Positions 5,843 through 39,169 of a stretch of DNA of 64,000 nucleotides are shown here, in pieces. The stretch covers positions 64,001-128,000 of the IMG/VR virus record IMGVR_UViG_3300007511_000004. One strand, given 5' to 3'. Position numbers and translations under genes: made by a program. This DNA comes from a virus. The number at the start of each line of letters is the position of its first letter. The stretch's first letter is position 1. The notes beneath the pieces were generated by a model that made no database searches, was not told the origin of the DNA, and saw only the letters and a list, made by a program, of their open reading frames with translations.

Positions 5843-6880
5843 ATGGCTGATCAAATTCAGGAACAGGATGTTGAGCTCGATGAAATCGACGAAGAAGTCA
5901 TCGAAGAAGCTCATGATCCTAAAAACGCTGAAGCCCAGTCAGTTGCCTCGGTAGATAAAGCTACTGATGCAGGACCGGGTCAAAGTGCAACCAGAACTGG
6001 TGATAGCAGAAAATCAGAACCAATGCCTAAAACTAAGGCTGGTATGATTAATGCTATGTACGGTAAAATGTCTGGAATGAAGAAAGCTGATCTTCAGGCA
6101 ATGTTCAAAGGTATGCACGAAGACGTAGATTTCGAAGAAGTGGAAGCAATTGCTGAAGCACAAATCGACGTCGATTCAGAACTTAAAGACCTTGTGGATA
6201 ACGAAGCAACACTCTCGGAAGAGTTCAAGGAAAAGACTGCAATCCTATTTGATACTGCAGTACAATCCAAGATCGCTGAAGAAGTTGAGCGTCTCGATGA
6301 ACAATACAAGGAAGAACTAGCTGGTGAAGTTTCAACCATGAAAGAATCAATGGTTGAGAAAATTGACAGCTACCTAAACTACGTAGTCGAAAATTGGATG
6401 GACGAAAATAAAATCGCTGTTCAAAATGGTCTTCGTACTGAAATTGCTGAAGGTTTCATGAGCAATCTTAAAGATCTGTTCACAGAGTCTTATATTGAAG
6501 TACCGGAGTCAAAAGTCGACCTAGTTGACGATCTCGCTGGTCAGGTTGAGGAGCTAGAAGAGCGCCTGAACAAGACTACCAAAGACGCGATCGACCTTTC
6601 GGAAGAAATTGAAAATCTTAAGAGAGATCGTATTGTCGCTGAAGCTGCTAAGGGTCTTGCAGACACTCAAGCAGAAAAACTAGCGGGTCTTCTTGAAAAG
6701 GCAGAATTCGAATCAGAAGAAGCTTTCGTTAAGAAAGTGGAAGTAATTAAAGAATCGTATTTTGCGGAACAAAAAGTAGAAGCTGATCCAATTGAGACGG
6801 AAACAATCACTGAAGAAGATACAGTGGAAGTTTCGGCAGTTATGGAACAGTATCTCACAGCTCTTAGAAAAACCCAATAA
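5843..6880 (+). CDS. gp22: Prohead scaffold/core protein
   Basis: Acidic coiled coil, IDSYLNYVVENWM, GLRTEIAEGFM; synteny. Confidence 0.93.
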   Translation: MADQIQEQDVELDEIDEEVIEEAHDPKNAEAQSVASVDKATDAGPGQSATRTGDSRKSEPMPKTKAGMINAMYGKMSGMKKADLQAMFKGMHEDVDFEEVEAIAEAQIDVDSELKDLVDNEATLSEEFKEKTAILFDTAVQSKIAEEVERLDEQYKEELAGEVSTMKESMVEKIDSYLNYVVENWMDENKIAVQNGLRTEIAEGFMSNLKDLFTESYIEVPESKVDLVDDLAGQVEELEERLNKTTKDAIDLSEEIENLKRDRIVAEAAKGLADTQAEKLAGLLEKAEFESEEAFVKKVEVIKESYFAEQKVEADPIETETITEEDTVEVSAVMEQYLTALRKTQ

Positions 6881-30989: not shown

Positions 30990-31828
30990 AACGGATTATT
31001 ATTGTCGGTCACGGCTTTGTTGGGAAGGCAGTAGATTACGGGTTTACGAATCCACAGGTAGAGAAGATCATAATTGATCCGAAATATGGTACAGATCTTT
31101 CCGACCTAAGCAATCTTATTGAAACAGACGCAATATTTGTCTGCTTACCTACCCCCATGGATAAGGATGGATCGATCGATAGCGAAATCCTTGAATCGAC
31201 ATTGACCCGTCTTAAGGGTCGGATCACTGGTCTTGATAGACCTAAGGTAATTGTTAAATCAACCGTGACTCCCGACGTGCTCAAGCGGGTCTACTTCCGA
31301 GGCTTAGTTTATAATCCGGAATTCCTGACGGAGCGATCTGCAAATGAACAATTCATCAATCCTACTATGCACATTTTAGGTGGCAGACGCGAAGATACTG
31401 AAGTGGTAGAGAAGCTAATTAATGAATATTCTCTTTGTAGCCCCGCACCCGTTTACCATATGTCTATGTCAGAGGCGTCATTTGTTAAATATGGCATCAA
31501 CGCCTTCCTTGCACTTAAGGTCCTTTTCTTCAATCAGTTGTATGATGTCGTGAATGACGATGATGATAGTAATTTCGCACGCGTCATAAAAGCCATAGGT
31601 TCTGATCCGCGGATCGGCCACAGTCACACAAAGGTGCCGGGTTTTGATGGTAAACAAGGATTCGGTGGTGCATGTTTTCCCAAGGACATTTCTGCATTAA
31701 ATACCTTCTCAGAGAGGTTTACAATCCTCGAAGAATGTGTTACAATAAACAATAACTATCGTAAGAACTATGTATTAGACGATAGAGAGAAATCACAAAA
31801 TATTTCATACAGGGAAACCAATAAATGA
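30986..31828 (+). CDS. ugd: UDP-glucose 6-dehydrogenase-like
   Basis: GHGFVG, CLPTP, KSTV, NPEFL, GFGGACFPKD. Confidence 0.9.
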   Translation: MKRIIIVGHGFVGKAVDYGFTNPQVEKIIIDPKYGTDLSDLSNLIETDAIFVCLPTPMDKDGSIDSEILESTLTRLKGRITGLDRPKVIVKSTVTPDVLKRVYFRGLVYNPEFLTERSANEQFINPTMHILGGRREDTEVVEKLINEYSLCSPAPVYHMSMSEASFVKYGINAFLALKVLFFNQLYDVVNDDDDSNFARVIKAIGSDPRIGHSHTKVPGFDGKQGFGGACFPKDISALNTFSERFTILEECVTINNNYRKNYVLDDREKSQNISYRETNK

Positions 31829-32736
31829 GTATTATGCAAAAGTTAAAGAAGAATAGTAGAGTTAAGTCCACCTCTATTCTATCCGAATCCAAATTCTTTA
31901 ATGAAAAGGACATGATTACAACTGATGTTCCGATGATCAACGTCGCGTTATCAGGTGCAGTTGATGGTGGCCTATCATCAGGTCTTACGGTCCTTGCTGG
32001 TCCATCTAAGCACTTTAAAACTTCATTTGCTTTGTTAATGGCATCTGCATACCTGAAAAAATACGATGATGCGGTTATCCTATTCTACGATTCAGAATTC
32101 GGTTCGCCCCAATCTTACTTTGAACAGTTTGATATTGATACATCCCGAGTACTCCATACGCCAATTACTAACGTCGAGGAACTCAAATTTGATATGATCC
32201 ATCAGCTCGAAAGTCTCGAGCGAGGGGATAAGGTTGTTGTTGTCATTGACTCGATAGGCAACCTCGCATCTAAGAAGGAACTAGATGATGCTCTGAGTGA
32301 GAAATCAGTAGCAGATATGAGCCGCGCAAAAGCTCTTAAGGGGCTATTCCGAATGGCAACCCCTTATCTAACCATGAAGAACATTCCGATGCTTGCGATT
32401 AACCACACGTATCAAACCCTAGAATTATTTAGCAAAGCGGTAGTATCCGGTGGTTGTGTTGTCGAAGGAACTAAGATTCAAACGCAACGTGGTCTAATTG
32501 AAATTCAAGATGTGCGTGAAGATGACATTATCATTACCCAATACGGCGATAAAGAAGTCAAAGCGTTATGGAATCCAGATACACTTGAAGAAGGCAATCC
32601 TGAGTGTTATGAGATTGAATTTGAAGATGGGTACAAGGTAACCTGTTCAGATAAACACAAGTTCATCGTAAATGGGGAATGGGTTGCTGCTAAAGACTTG
32701 GTAGAAGATATGGATTGTGAAACCTTGAAATCTTAA
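31825..32736 (+). CDS. uvsX: UvsX recombinase N-extein (aa 1-210) fused to the N-half of a split intein (93 aa)
   Basis: AGPSKHFKT, YDSEFG, IDSIGNLAS, ADMSRAK, NHTY, VVSGG then CVVEGTKI (intein block A) and TCSDKHKF (block B), then stop. Confidence 0.93.
   Translation: MSIMQKLKKNSRVKSTSILSESKFFNEKDMITTDVPMINVALSGAVDGGLSSGLTVLAGPSKHFKTSFALLMASAYLKKYDDAVILFYDSEFGSPQSYFEQFDIDTSRVLHTPITNVEELKFDMIHQLESLERGDKVVVVIDSIGNLASKKELDDALSEKSVADMSRAKALKGLFRMATPYLTMKNIPMLAINHTYQTLELFSKAVVSGGCVVEGTKIQTQRGLIEIQDVREDDIIITQYGDKEVKALWNPDTLEEGNPECYEIEFEDGYKVTCSDKHKFIVNGEWVAAKDLVEDMDCETLKS
32455..32736 (+). mobile_element. Split intein, N-fragment (IntN)
   Basis: Starts with Cys right after SGG; block A and block B motifs; ends at a stop codon with no HN terminus. 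Confidence 0.9.
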
Positions 32737-32740
32737 TTTG

Positions 32741-32748
32741 TATAAATA
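32741..32748 (+). promoter_or_regulatory. Late promoter for the homing endonuclease
   Basis: TATAAATA immediately after the IntN stop. Confidence 0.75.
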
Positions 32749-32784
32749 TTATCAGCAGTATAATACATAACCTGAGAGGCTGAT

Positions 32785-33615
32785 ATGAATTACAAATTAC
32801 ATTACGATAGATTAATAAGCAATGCAAGGTTGCGATTAAACGTGGACCAGTATACGGAAAAGCACCATATTATACCTAAGTGTATGGGTGGTGGTGATAC
32901 CCCTGATAATCTGGTTAGATTAACAGCCAAGGAGCATTTCGTTGCACATCACCTACTATGGAAAGAATACCGAACACCTGAATTGGCTCATGCCTGGTTT
33001 ATGATGCTTCGGTGTGACCCTAACCAGAAAAGAGAATTTACAGCCAAACAGCATGAGGCTGCAACAATCGCGCATGTTGAAGTTCTGAGAAAAACTATGG
33101 TTGGTTCGGGTAATCATTTTTATGGAAGAAAGCATACTGAAGCGGCTAAGGCTAAAATCAGTAGAGCCAATACAGGTAAGGCTCATACCCAAGAGTTTAG
33201 AGATGCATACTCCAAGAGATTCAAAGGTATACCTAAGACCCCAGAACATCGAGCTAAGATAGGTCGTACCGGACTTTCTATGTATCAGAACATAGAAACT
33301 GGTGAAATTGTAAGAGTAGCTAAAGGGACCTTAGACGAAACCTTGTGGGTTAACCCTAGGAAATTGAAGCCAGAAGCCCGACGCAAATGCACTTACTGTG
33401 ATTTTATATCCACAGAATCCAATCTAAAGATGTGGCATGATGGTAATTGTCGGTGGAAAGATACTGGAATATATGTTAAGCCATCAAGTATAAGAACCAC
33501 TAATAGGAAACGAATACCAGTTACAATAGACGGAGTACAATACAAATCGATTAACGCGGCCGCGAAGGCATTAGGAGTGAGTAAATATGAAATCAAAAAA
33601 CTGGCTGCCATTTGA
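32785..33615 (+). CDS. HNH homing endonuclease with NUMOD3/NUMOD1-like DNA-binding modules
   Basis: EKHHIIPKCMGG...NLVRLTAKEHFVAH; GNHFYGRKHTEAAKAKIS; IDGVQYKSINAAAKALG. Confidence 0.92.
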   Translation: MNYKLHYDRLISNARLRLNVDQYTEKHHIIPKCMGGGDTPDNLVRLTAKEHFVAHHLLWKEYRTPELAHAWFMMLRCDPNQKREFTAKQHEAATIAHVEVLRKTMVGSGNHFYGRKHTEAAKAKISRANTGKAHTQEFRDAYSKRFKGIPKTPEHRAKIGRTGLSMYQNIETGEIVRVAKGTLDETLWVNPRKLKPEARRKCTYCDFISTESNLKMWHDGNCRWKDTGIYVKPSSIRTTNRKRIPVTIDGVQYKSINAAAKALGVSKYEIKKLAAI

Positions 33616-33763
33616 GTCATTGGATAATGAACAATATATCCGTTACTTAGAACGGGCTGAAATGTTTCATGAAAAAGATTTACATACCGATAAAACTGTG
33701 ATACAATTAGCTAATGTATTATATGAAAAGGAGATGGCTAAAAATGAAAGTAAAATCAATTAA
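33587..33763 (+). CDS. 58-aa hypothetical protein between HNH gene and IntC
   Basis: AGGAG RBS at 33573; MKSKNWLPFESLDNEQYIRYLERAEMFHEKDLHTDKTVIQLANVLYEKEMAKNESKIN*; overlaps both neighbours. Confidence 0.6.
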   Translation: MKSKNWLPFESLDNEQYIRYLERAEMFHEKDLHTDKTVIQLANVLYEKEMAKNESKIN

Positions 33764-33866
33764 TAATGTAGGTCGTAAACCTGTTTACGATCTTTCTGTT
33801 AATAGTAATAATTACGATGAACAGCAATACGTGCTTGAAAATGGTGTAGTAACACATAACACGGGT
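33744..33866 (+). CDS. uvsX: Split intein C-fragment (39 aa) plus the first two C-extein residues TG; exon 1 of uvsX-C
   Basis: AAGGAG RBS; MKVKSINNVGRKPVYDLSVNSNNYDEQQYVLENGVVTHN/TG contains block F (VYDLSV) and block G (THN) with +1 Thr. Confidence 0.92.
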
Positions 33867-34110
33867 AAATAAGTGCCCCTTAATATGGTAACATATTTCG
33901 AAAACTCCTCTAATTGCTGGGAACTCCTACGGGACAATCAGCAGCCAAGACCGAAAGGTAAGGTTCAACGACTAGTCGAAAGACGTACACTCAAGTGAGT
34001 GGAAATGGGGAGCAACCTAATTAGGTTGAAGATATAGTCTGATCTATATGGTAACATATAGCTGGGTAGAGTCCCGGGGTAAGATTAACGACCTTATCTG
34101 AACATAAATG
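33867..34110 (+). mobile_element. Group I intron (IA2-like, ORF-less, 244 nt) in uvsX-C
   Basis: 5' exon ends in U; P1 GGGU/GCCC; P AAUUGCUGGGAA; Q AAUCAGCAGC; R GUUCAACGACUA; S AAGAUAUAGUC; P3 CUCCUC/GGGGAG; P7.1 and P7.2 hairpins; terminal G; removal restores TG-IYYSASNIW. Confidence 0.93.
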
Positions 34111-34524
34111 ATTTACTACTCGGCCTCCAATATCTGGATCCTGGGACGACAGCAAGATAAACAAGGTACTGAAATAAAAGGATATCATTTTGTCATTAAT
34201 GTCGAAAAATCACGATACGTCAAAGAGAAATCAAAGATACCGATCTCAGTTAGTTGGGAAGGTGGGGTTCAGCGTTGGTCTGGTCTCCTTGAAGTTGCTC
34301 TTGCGGGTAATTATGTTGCAAAGCCGTCTAATGGATGGTACCAATATGTTGACCAAGAAACTGGGGAGCTTGTTGGAACAAAATGTCGAGAAAAGGAAAC
34401 GCTCAATGAAAGCTTCTGGACGCCAATCCTAGAAAAGACTGATTTTAAAGAATTCATTCGAAAGCAATATCAGATTGGTCATACAGCAATCGTTGAAATG
34501 GATAAGATTGTGGTAGAGGGATGA
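34111..34524 (+). CDS. uvsX: UvsX C-extein, exon 2 (137 aa)
   Basis: IYYSASNIWILGRQQDK, VEKSRYVKEKSKIP, KPSNGWY. Confidence 0.92.
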   Translation: MYYSASNIWILGRQQDKQGTEIKGYHFVINVEKSRYVKEKSKIPISVSWEGGVQRWSGLLEVALAGNYVAKPSNGWYQYVDQETGELVGTKCREKETLNESFWTPILEKTDFKEFIRKQYQIGHTAIVEMDKIVVEG

Positions 34525-37062: not shown

Positions 37063-37270
37063 AAAACTTTCAACTTACTACGCCGAACCAAACCCTCCAG
37101 ATAATGGTTGTGCGGAGGTTCATGTTGATTTCCGACATGAGAGCCTTTATATTAAATATTATGATGATCAGGGGAAGCTATTTTTCACTGAAGAATTCCC
37201 GGGTAAATCTCTTAGGTATGTAGAAGATGCAGCAGAAAATTGGGCATTAGGGATAAAAAAGTTGGATTAG
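37055..37270 (+). CDS. Hypothetical protein
   Basis: Overlaps thyX stop; KSLRYVEDAAENWALG. Confidence 0.7.
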   Translation: MGKKLSTYYAEPNPPDNGCAEVHVDFRHESLYIKYYDDQGKLFFTEEFPGKSLRYVEDAAENWALGIKKLD

Positions 37271-37335: not shown

Positions 37336-37818
37336 ATGAAGATAGATTTACGGAACGTGGTATCCTTTGCTCTTACTGGTACAGTAGTAGCTCTAGGATC
37401 CCTTGCCGCCCAAGATAGAATGGCTTCGGCCGCCACTGAAAGAAATTGTTTGGCTATGAACGTCTATCACGAAGCACGTGGTGAAAGCGTGATTGGTCAG
37501 ATTGCCGTAGCCCAAGTGGTTATGAATCGGGTGGATCACAATTATTTTCCTGATACAGTATGTGATGTAGTTTATCAAGATCATCAATTCTCTTGGACTC
37601 AGGATAATATTAGCGATACTACTAGTGATACTTTTGCTTGGAATCTTGCCAAGGATATTGCTATTACCGTATACGCGCGAGAAGAGGATGATCCTACATC
37701 CGGCGCCCTTTTCTACCATGCGGATTATATTGATACCCCACACTGGGCTAAACAAATGGAAACCACACTCCGTGAAGAGACTCATATCTTCTATTCATGG
37801 GATGGGGTTTGGGATTAA
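37336..37818 (+). CDS. SleB-like cell wall hydrolase (Hydrolase_2)
   Basis: N-terminal hydrophobic segment, CLAMNVYHEARGE, VVMNRV, QFSW, GALFYH, HIFY. Confidence 0.9.
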   Translation: MKIDLRNVVSFALTGTVVALGSLAAQDRMASAATERNCLAMNVYHEARGESVIGQIAVAQVVMNRVDHNYFPDTVCDVVYQDHQFSWTQDNISDTTSDTFAWNLAKDIAITVYAREEDDPTSGALFYHADYIDTPHWAKQMETTLREETHIFYSWDGVWD

Positions 37819-37836
37819 AATTAATAAGGACATAAA

Positions 37837-38421
37837 ATGAAAATGCTTCCGAAGATTCTAGTAGTTGGTCATGGCCGACATGGTAAAGATAGCGTGGCTG
37901 AGATCCTCCAAATGTTCTATGGGATGACCTTTAGAGGATCAAGTGAGTTTTGTGCTGAGACTGTATGCTTTCCCGCAATGAAGGCCGAATATGGTTATAA
38001 AGATTATATGGAGTGTTTTGATGATCGCCATAATCATCGATCGGAGTGGTATGATCTTATCTCGCAATATTGTGCTGAAGATCCAACCCGGCTAGGTCGT
38101 GAAATCTTTAAGGTATCGGATGTCTACTGCGGACTTCGGAATAAAAGAGAATTCCATGCACTGAAAAATGCAGGAGTATTTGATATTGCGCTATGGGTAG
38201 ATCGATCCGATCATCTACCACCAGAAGATAGGGCGAGTAATACTATTGAACCTTGGATGGCAGATTTTGTCATTGATAATAATGGCTCCAGGGATGATCT
38301 AACCCTTGCAGTGAAACAACTTATGGATAACCTATTGGGTCGAAATAGTCCCGAAGTATCTAATATGTCACATCACCAAGAATTTGCAACTGAAAATATC
38401 ATTAACTTGGATAATATCTAA
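37837..38421 (+). CDS. Deoxynucleoside monophosphate kinase-like
   Basis: VGHGRHGKD P-loop, GLRNKRE, DFVIDNNG. Confidence 0.65.
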   Translation: MKMLPKILVVGHGRHGKDSVAEILQMFYGMTFRGSSEFCAETVCFPAMKAEYGYKDYMECFDDRHNHRSEWYDLISQYCAEDPTRLGREIFKVSDVYCGLRNKREFHALKNAGVFDIALWVDRSDHLPPEDRASNTIEPWMADFVIDNNGSRDDLTLAVKQLMDNLLGRNSPEVSNMSHHQEFATENIINLDNI

Positions 38422-38428
38422 ATCCGTC

Positions 38429-38436
38429 TATAAATA
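38429..38436 (+). promoter_or_regulatory. Late promoter upstream of the tmRNA
   Basis: TATAAATA. Confidence 0.7.
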
Positions 38437-38441
38437 TTTCG

Positions 38442-38760
38442 TAAACGTTGAAGCAACGTAGACACATACTGGACCTCGGGGCAGTGCCGAGCGACTCCAC
38501 CATAAGCGCCCAGTTGGTTCCGGGTCTTAATCTCTATGAAGCACGTAAGGAAGTAGCTACCGGATCGTGTGGAGGGAACTGGCCGTTTTTGATGGGGTCG
38601 AAATTTAGGATCGACAGGTGTGAAAGTGAAGTGGAGTTTACCGGCTGAGTCGCGTAATAGACTTACTAAACTAAATGCAAACGTAAATGCAAAACCAGAG
38701 ATCCGCCTAGCGGCTTAATCTCTTGCGGTATGGGCTCCACCGTATCATCAAACGGACCCA
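38442..38760 (+). ncRNA. ssrA: Circularly permuted two-piece tmRNA, alphaproteobacterial type; tag ANVNAKPEIRLAA
   Basis: Acceptor piece with T-arm CTCGG-GGCAGTG-CCGAG and CGACTCCACCA (CCA 38500-38502); coding piece starts GGGGTCG (38594), giving a G3-U pair; tag frame 38677-38718 ending LAA*; outer ends approximate. Confidence 0.92.
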
Positions 38761-38803
38761 CTAAAATCTTAGAAAGCTTTTCATTAATCAAAGGATATAC
38801 AAA

Positions 38804-39169
38804 ATGAAAACCCTCGCTCTTGCAACCGCGCTTTCCGGCGCGCTCCTTGCGTCTTCGGCTAATGCCGGTGAAATTGGTAATACTGGCATCTCGCTGGGCG
38901 GTACTCTCGATACTAACTACACTACTGGTGAAAATGTCTTTGCAGTAGATTTCATCCCTCGTGCTCAGTTTTCAAACTGGGGCATCCTATTCGGCGCTCA
39001 AACTACTCTTGACGTAATGGGGCTAAACGATGGTGATATCTTTAAGGGTATTGACCTTGATGCATCTTATGATATTGGTACTACAGGTCTGAAGGCCTAT
39101 GGTAAAATCGGTACGGATTCAGATTTCGTATTCGGTAATGCTAAGATCGGTGTATCATTCGCATTCTAA
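38804..39169 (+). CDS. Small outer-membrane beta-barrel/porin-like protein
   Basis: Signal peptide ending ANA, alternating beta strands, C-terminal IGVSFAF. Confidence 0.7.
   Translation: MKTLALATALSGALLASSANAGEIGNTGISLGGTLDTNYTTGENVFAVDFIPRAQFSNWGILFGAQTTLDVMGLNDGDIFKGIDLDASYDIGTTGLKAYGKIGTDSDFVFGNAKIGVSFAF

Follow-up and report, generated by a model that had tools for sequence, protein, structure and literature searches.

Fractured genes, in which the halves of a split intein are separated by a free-standing endonuclease gene, are known from gp41-1 to gp41-9, NrdJ-1, IMPDH-1 and NrdA (Dassa et al. 2009, PMC2677866). Phage group I introns without an open reading frame (ORF) are likewise known, and so are genes that carry both an intron and an intein, as phage and prophage ribonucleotide reductase genes do (PMC3653736). 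Here we describe a uvsX recombinase gene in which a split intein and an ORF-less group I intron lie almost at the same site. The gene is located in the window, by which we mean the whole 64,000-nucleotide (nt) stretch that was analysed, corresponding to bases 64001-128000 of an IMG/VR virus record; this record has 146,556 bp, carries direct terminal repeats and is estimated to be 100% complete. With a probability of roughly 0.85, we read the locus as a working fractured uvsX that would need two sequential self-splicing reactions; both RNA splicing and protein splicing are what we infer from the sequence.

The locus shares the layout of the published fractured genes (PMC2677866), with an N-part joined to the N-intein (IntN), a free-standing endonuclease gene on the same strand and a C-intein (IntC) joined to the C-part, and, like them, it stems from marine T4-like phage DNA, has a hairpin before the endonuclease start and contains an intein that is closest to gp41-1 and has the same split point. 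The sole departure from this layout is that the ORF of the C-part is interrupted by an intron. Unlike in the published set, the host gene is uvsX, which PMC2677866 mentions only as a neighbour of gp41, the endonuclease is of the HNH/NUMOD type and the C-half is interrupted 6 nt past the intein. Because the intron lies so close to the intein site, the ORF of the C-half is absent from the DNA. The coordinates of all features are given in Table 1. The initial annotation had described UvsX residues 1-210 ending in SGG and running into an IntN of 93 amino acids (aa) with a stop codon, followed by an HNH gene, a 58-aa ORF and a separately translated 39-aa IntC with Thr+1 and Gly+2 (33744-33866), and each of these elements was recovered.

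In the mechanism that we propose, the N-half would be translated as UvsX(1-210)-IntN (303 aa). In unspliced RNA of the locus the IntC ORF would stop after Thr-Gly-Lys, giving a 42-aa IntC-TGK peptide for which any role is speculative. The group I intron would excise by the guanosine-initiated mechanism, with helix P1 using the Thr+1/Gly+2 codons and P10 using AUUUA of exon 2, and its excision would join ACGGGT/ATTTAC and thus create a 178-aa IntC-UvsX(211-349) precursor. IntN and IntC would next pair in the manner of the gp41-1 split intein, and trans-splicing, for which Cys1 and Thr+1 would serve as nucleophiles, would yield a 349-aa recombinase that would contain the peptide AVVSGGTGIYYSASNIW. 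The proposal of the initial annotation that the IntC-extein precursor would arise only after RNA self-splicing, to be followed by trans-splicing, is supported as a prediction by the intact intron core, the catalytic residues, the single gene copy, the purifying selection and the second lineage that are set out below.

UvsX(1-210)-IntN forms one ORF (31825-32736) with no break before the intein, and Cys1 follows directly on the N-extein (SGG/C at 32455). The IntC has its own ATG (33744), preceded by the Shine-Dalgarno sequence AAGGAG at 33728-33733, 10 nt upstream. Among solved structures, the best relative of IntN is the gp41-1 split intein 6QAZ (E value 1.1e-5), and the window intein is broken at the gp41-1 split point. 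Across 15 divergent alleles, Cys1, the Ser and His of the block B motif CSDKH, which corresponds to CSEEH of gp41-1, and D16 (block F), H38, N39, T40 (Thr+1) and G41 (Gly+2) of IntC are all invariant. For comparison we used 80 related IMG/VR loci (designated by L numbers), and the same intein occupies the same site in 18 of them. In L008 (3357-4773) and L009 it is contiguous, a 130-aa mini-intein inside an unbroken uvsX ORF and likely a cis-splicing relative of the split forms; the L008 homologue aligns to 6QAZ with an E value of 1.3e-11 over residues 6-130, up to the final His-Asn. L016-L019 have the split form without an endonuclease gene, with a few bases or a short spacer between the halves, and L002-L007, L010-L015 and L057 have the split form with an endonuclease gene.

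These comparisons also bear on the possibility that the intein halves act as a non-covalent clasp, so that after RNA splicing the UvsX pieces would function as a heterodimer without peptide ligation. Fragmented phage genes whose products assemble without splicing are documented, for example NrdA of phage Aeh1 (PMC3045599). However, Cys1, Ser-x-x-His, the block F Asp, His-Asn and Thr+1 are invariant in 15 divergent alleles, the break lies inside the conserved SGG-TG-IYYSA segment of the ATPase core, and the contiguous L008 form of the same intein must splice to yield any UvsX at all. We therefore regard a clasp as very unlikely and retain ligation by trans-splicing as our reading.

The same intein allele, without an intron, also splits uvsX in about 25 cultured T4-like phages, with IntN 53-56% identical, and the annotation of these genomes shows the halves just as a pair of RecA-like proteins that flank a homing endonuclease. 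Examples are Proteus phage Pm5461 (KP890823), PspYZU05 (Pseudomonas), HY03 (Escherichia), ELT1, pSe_SNUABM_01, TG1 and Thanatos-1, all of which share the site (GG/C and THN/TG) and the allele. As in the window, an endonuclease gene lies between the halves; unlike in the window, there is no intron, and the endonuclease belongs to another family, with a phrog_7504 N-domain. The intein is therefore not of a new type, being gp41-1-like from end to end with the same split point, and inteins with Thr+1 are known. The earlier suggestion that the short pair with Thr+1 may serve as a new orthogonal trans-splicing tool is therefore a modest one, and since the intein is gp41-1-like, its practical value for this purpose is modest as well.

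The IntN ORF of the endonuclease-less split allele L016 (L016:5610-5942) ends in NRWHNENCKHKME. This end resembles the zinc-finger-like C-terminal stretch MWHDGNCRWKD of the window endonuclease, as if an endonuclease gene had been deleted here and had left a scar. Together with this putative remnant, the series of contiguous and split forms matches the gene-breaking model of Dassa et al. (PMC2677866). The older layer of the locus would be a mini-intein that was later split by a homing-endonuclease cassette and is widespread.

The intron was identified with Rfam model RF00028 (gathering score 50), whose match at 33857-34061 spans the entire model (positions 1-253 of 253, 103.8 bits, E value 6e-27, not truncated) and which has no other match in the whole genome. 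This supports the earlier placement of a 244-nt group I intron 6 nt past the intein site, and its boundaries are fixed by the intron-less contig L002 described below. The word 'nested', which had been used for the two splicing steps, is a loose term, because the intron sits in the C-extein, 6 nt past the C-terminal junction of the intein, and not within the intein. In P1, exon GGGU (33863-33866) pairs with the guide GCCC and places a U.G wobble at the 5' splice site; this U.G pair is kept in three of four related introns, and the intron-less allele reads GGA at this position. In P10, AUUUA at the start of exon 2 pairs with the guide bases UAAGU, which lie just upstream of GCCC (five pairs including one G.U), P7 is formed by GACUA/UAGUC, and the terminal G is at 34110. 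Consensus folding of four related introns, a small sample consisting of those of the window, L085, the terL gene of Acinetobacter phage YMC13/03/R2096 and Vibrio phage D181, gave 65 pairs, 30 of which show compensatory double changes. On these features the group I core is complete, and we predict that the intron is able to self-splice.

Two relatives of the intron come from cultured phages, with 76% identity for that of YMC13/03/R2096 terL and, across 64% of the length, 85% for that of Vibrio phage D181. The intron is also 76% identical to the T-even nrdB introns over about 70% of its length and is thus of the T4 type, a subgroup that we take to be IA2-like. Like the T-even nrdB and td introns, it is ORF-less and compact, has a matching core and contains an in-frame stop codon soon after the 5' splice site (33870-33872, AAA UAA, two codons into the intron and within the P1 loop). 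A stop at such an early position is usual in phage introns and prevents ribosomes from entering the ribozyme core. Unlike in the T-even introns, the host gene and the site differ, and the 5' exon has 123 nt and encodes the C-intein and two extein residues. The P2 (33885-33898) and P9 (34050-34063) hairpins share the identical 14-nt sequence ATATGGTAACATAT. The P9 hairpin pattern with its flanks recurs on 33 other IMG/VR contigs, in related introns that all lie outside uvsX, and exact-pattern scans of IMG/VR with the intron 5' junction and with the intron 3' segment gave no match.

L002, a contig assembled from a different metagenome, has 99.7% identity with the window along 7.1 kb and shares the split intein, the endonuclease (100% aa identity) and the 58-aa ORF, but lacks the intron; the sole indel between the two is exactly the 244 nt. 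At the junction, L002 reads GTT GTG ACA CAT AAT ACA GGA/ATT TAC, whereas the window reads GTA GTA ACA CAT AAC ACG GGT/intron/ATT TAC. Of the 23 differences between window and L002, five, each of them synonymous, are concentrated in the final 19 nt of exon 1, and the other 18 are spread over about 7.1 kb; some 0.05 differences would be expected in those 19 nt (Poisson P about 2e-9, hand arithmetic). A metagenome scan with the junction sequence returned two contigs from two other datasets, L085 and L086, with the order IntN, endonuclease, small ORF, IntC-TG/intron/IYYSADNIW. Both have diverged from the window, with about 60-63% aa identity in the C-part of UvsX, 77% in IntC and 38% in the small ORF; their intron is 86.5% identical to that of the window at the nucleotide level and their exon 2 DNA only 64.5%.

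Since the window was assembled from a metagenome and a near-identical contig lacks the intron, we considered whether the intron is an assembly chimera that does not truly belong to the uvsX of this phage. The insertion is exact to the base and in frame, lying between exon bases compatible with P1 and P10, and the same junction of IntC-TG, intron and exon 2 recurs on the two contigs from other datasets, so that a chimera is extremely improbable. In an alignment, the window agrees base for base with L085/L086 across the final 19-30 nt of exon 1 and on through the initial 62 nt of the intron; 5' of this tract, and again beginning with the sixth base of exon 2, its sequence is that of L002. P1 is best formed with ACGGGT as the Thr-Gly codons, and 80 intron-less alleles all lack this hexamer. 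The simplest reading of the short, synonymous, co-conversion-like tract beside an exact indel is that the intron came by recombination from an intron-bearing intein allele into one that resembled L002 and already had the intein, taking along a short piece of the donor's exon, which would be a homing signature. The younger layer of the locus would accordingly be an ORF-less intron that came into an intein-bearing allele by recombination or homing and brought about 19-30 nt of donor exon 1. A second cluster of differences to L002, nine changes in 28 nt, lies at window 37401-37428 (ORF 37336-37818), with two more at 37110 and 37113, and suggests another short gene-conversion patch.

The joined pieces give the SGG-TG-IYYSA segment and the 349-aa recombinase that the initial annotation had derived, and they are collinear with T4 UvsX and with 62 uninterrupted homologues. 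On the T4 UvsX structure 3IO5, the N-extein stops at residue 186 (GGG) and exon 2 aligns from its Tyr3 at chain residue 191, so that Thr-Gly-Ile-Tyr fill residues 187-190 and leave no gap. In the 62 uninterrupted relatives, exactly nine bases (Gly-Thr-Gly) lie between the parts matched by the N and C queries. The spliced product is predicted to have 349 aa; in Phage C48C1 (Kyanoviridae), the closest named record, uvsX is uninterrupted and encodes 350 aa, and the gene order is as in the window (ugd, uvsX, small ORF, gp41 helicase). The genome holds one uvsX N-part and one C-domain; a second uvsX or recA-like gene, an intact copy of which would have suggested that this locus is decaying, was looked for in the complete genome and not found. 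Between the window and the L085 lineage, the ratio of nonsynonymous to synonymous substitution rates (dN/dS) is 0.10 for the C-part of UvsX and 0.24 for IntC, with dS saturated, and on these codon comparisons uvsX is under purifying selection in both lineages.

Several points weigh against a functional doubly spliced gene. P1 consists of only four contiguous pairs and one A-U pair past a C/C mismatch. IntC alone matches solved structures weakly (E value 1.8), and the Pfam intein and HNH matches on the window pieces lie below the curated cut-offs. The true donor of the intron was not found, as the L085 intron departs from that of the window in its 3' half, and the phage has not been cultured, metagenome assemblies being its sole source. 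The short P1 would also suit a decaying uvsX in which splicing of the intron or of the intein has been lost and the phage uses a host recombinase or no UvsX, and intron entry was recent, as the 99.7% identical intron-less contig indicates, which may have left little time for selection. Against decay, however, all reading frames are intact, all intein catalytic residues are present and the intron core is complete; the composite has been kept in the diverged L085 lineage with a dN/dS of 0.10, the differences flanking the intron are all synonymous and fit P1, and the gene is the sole uvsX in a complete genome. We consider decay very unlikely and maintain that the locus probably encodes a working UvsX.

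Table 1. Features of the fractured uvsX locus (positions in the window)
Feature	Position	Strand	Evidence
uvsX N-extein, aa 1-210, end AVVSGG	31825..32454	+	T4 UvsX 3IO5, E 7e-72, to chain residue 186; phrog_97, phrog_8337
N-intein (IntN), 93 aa from Cys1, block B CSDKH, stop codon	32455..32736	+	6QAZ, E 1.1e-5; C1 and S-x-x-H invariant in 15 alleles
TATAAATA late-promoter-like box and 7-bp hairpin UAUCAGC/GCUGAUA, ending at endonuclease start codon	32741..32787	+	
Free-standing HNH/NUMOD homing endonuclease gene, 276 aa	32785..33615	+	phrog_655, E 3e-50; Pfam NUMOD3 above cut-off
58-aa ORF	33587..33763	+	overlaps endonuclease gene end and IntC start; homologous small ORFs in L003, L004, L010, L085
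C-intein (IntC), 39 aa, MKVKSI..VYDLSV..VVTHN	33744..33860	+	Pfam Intein_splicing positions 122-155, E 0.0015; D16, H38, N39 invariant
Thr+1/Gly+2 codons ACG GGT, exon 1 end and 5' strand of P1	33861..33866	+	GGGU:GCCC pairing
244-nt ORF-less group I intron, T4 nrdB-like	33867..34110	+	RF00028, 103.8 bits; exact indel vs L002; covariation
uvsX exon 2, remaining C-extein, 137 aa and stop, IYYSASNIW..	34111..34524	+	PF21134 T4_UVSX_C, 49 bits; 3IO5, E 1e-32, from residue 191

Pfam searches with the individual pieces returned the expected families (RecA, Intein_splicing/Hint, HNH and NUMOD, T4_UVSX_C), the HNH, NUMOD1 and I-TevI_DNA-bd matches on the endonuclease all being below cut-off, and the stop codon of exon 2 lies at 34522-34524. 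The hairpin before the endonuclease start has a fold z-score of -1.4, which is not significant, and the TATAAATA box is mildly enriched in the window; a meaningful role of the two elements is suggestive at most. The 58-aa ORF gave no family match in Pfam and PHROG profile searches. Small ORFs of 52-60 aa that lie 3' of the endonuclease gene and overlap the IntC start are present in several diverged lineages (window 33587-33763; L085:1036-1194; L010 about 2282-2416; L003 about 6697-6810; L004 about 6610-6760) and share the pattern W..[FI].SL.....[YW]L.[RQ]AE...[ED]KG....[KQ]LA..LY.K, so the small ORF looks like a real, as yet unnamed part of the endonuclease cassette.

Collaborative homing, in which a free-standing endonuclease and an ORF-less intron act together, has been described for cyanophage S-PM2 psbA/F-CphI, for T3/T7-like phages and for the ICP1 terminase (PMC6083498, PMC10448857, PMC2988022). 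The uvsX locus is like these systems in that its ORF-less intron is closely preceded, within one host gene, by a free-standing endonuclease gene; it is unlike them in that this gene lies between the halves of a split intein and is also present where the intron is absent, as in L002 and at many other loci. The endonuclease of the L085 lineage (L085:189-1064) and the window HNH protein share their C-terminal 150 aa (54% identity, E value 6e-53), a module that is presumably the DNA-binding part, whereas the N-terminal 140 aa of the L085 enzyme belong to phrog_7504, another family than the window HNH; phrog_7504 also provides the N-domain of the fractured-uvsX endonuclease of Proteus phage Pm5461. 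The shared C-terminal module with differing N-domains indicates that one intein site has hosted enzymes with exchanged nuclease domains. As L002 carries the identical endonuclease without the intron, cleavage of the intron-less IntC/extein junction is presumably not an activity of this enzyme. Some nuclease would nevertheless have driven the transfer of the intron.

In other genes, relatives of the intron lie directly 3' of free-standing endonuclease genes, as in YMC13/03/R2096 terL, Vibrio phage D181 and L093. A tie between an endonuclease family and the intron family was considered and rejected, as the Acinetobacter terL and Vibrio D181 enzymes share only NUMOD-like DNA-binding stretches with the window HNH protein. 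The L093 locus (L093:10150-13361, minus strand) is another endonuclease-plus-intron composite in a replication gene: its family-B DNA polymerase gene consists of a 537-aa N-part, a 387-aa HNH gene, a 58-aa ORF ending in KKINLNS, the intron and a 344-aa C-part, and the intron is ORF-less and 88% identical to that of the window over 180 nt.

Both the shared C-terminal module and the short co-converted tract of only about 19-30 nt, which is like the cut distance of I-TevI, 23-25 bp upstream (PMC3239194), lead us to suggest, tentatively and as a possibility that we would not favour, that two mobile elements, the intein-endonuclease cassette and the ORF-less intron, interact at a common target site and engage in collaborative homing. 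If this were true, the endonucleases would bind C-extein DNA spanning the intron site and would still cut intein-bearing alleles, and the intron would spread by that cut, shield its carrier and ride along when the 1.66-kb cassette homes into a naive uvsX. The locus would then be a natural case of adjacent selfish elements that shape each other's spread.

The initial annotation knew of no described gene that needs both steps at virtually one site, and our search of the full-text literature that is available without subscription found none either; neither a canonical uvsX split intein nor a group I intron next to a split intein was described in the papers that it covered. Like the phage and prophage ribonucleotide reductase genes, the window gene would need both RNA and protein splicing. 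In SPbeta bnrdE, the inteins are reportedly contiguous and lie at sites distant from the introns, unlike in the window, where only 6 nt separate the intron from the site of the intein, which is split. The atypically split inteins of the VidaL type, which are said to occur in uvsX of uncultured phages and to have a very short IntN and no cysteine, differ from the window intein, which has a canonical split (93/39 aa) and Cys1; the sequence relation of the VidaL-type split intein 6VGV to the uvsX intein is weak (E value 0.003).

Elsewhere in the window, a permuted two-piece tmRNA (transfer-messenger RNA) gene of the alphaproteobacterial type is located at 38403-38809 (Rfam tmRNA_permuted 84.3 bits, alpha_tmRNA 66.6 bits). 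ARAGORN likewise reports a permuted tmRNA, with the tag peptide AKPEIRLAA, and a TATAAATA box is present at 38429. The permuted form may point to an alphaproteobacterial host.

Taken at the strength given above, the locus would mean that a single essential gene of a phage is able to bear a pair of independent self-splicing parasites two codons apart, with the guide helix of the RNA element built from the codons of the +1 nucleophile of the protein element. The near-isogenic pair with and without the intron, together with the second lineage, provides a natural record of intron entry into an intein-occupied site that includes a short co-conversion-like tract, and the two lineages with swapped nuclease domains on a shared module offer a test of whether endonuclease, intein and intron compete or cooperate at such a hot spot. 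Finally, as one intein is available in a full series, contiguous, split without an endonuclease, split with an endonuclease, and split with both endonuclease and intron, this family allows tests of the gene-breaking model.

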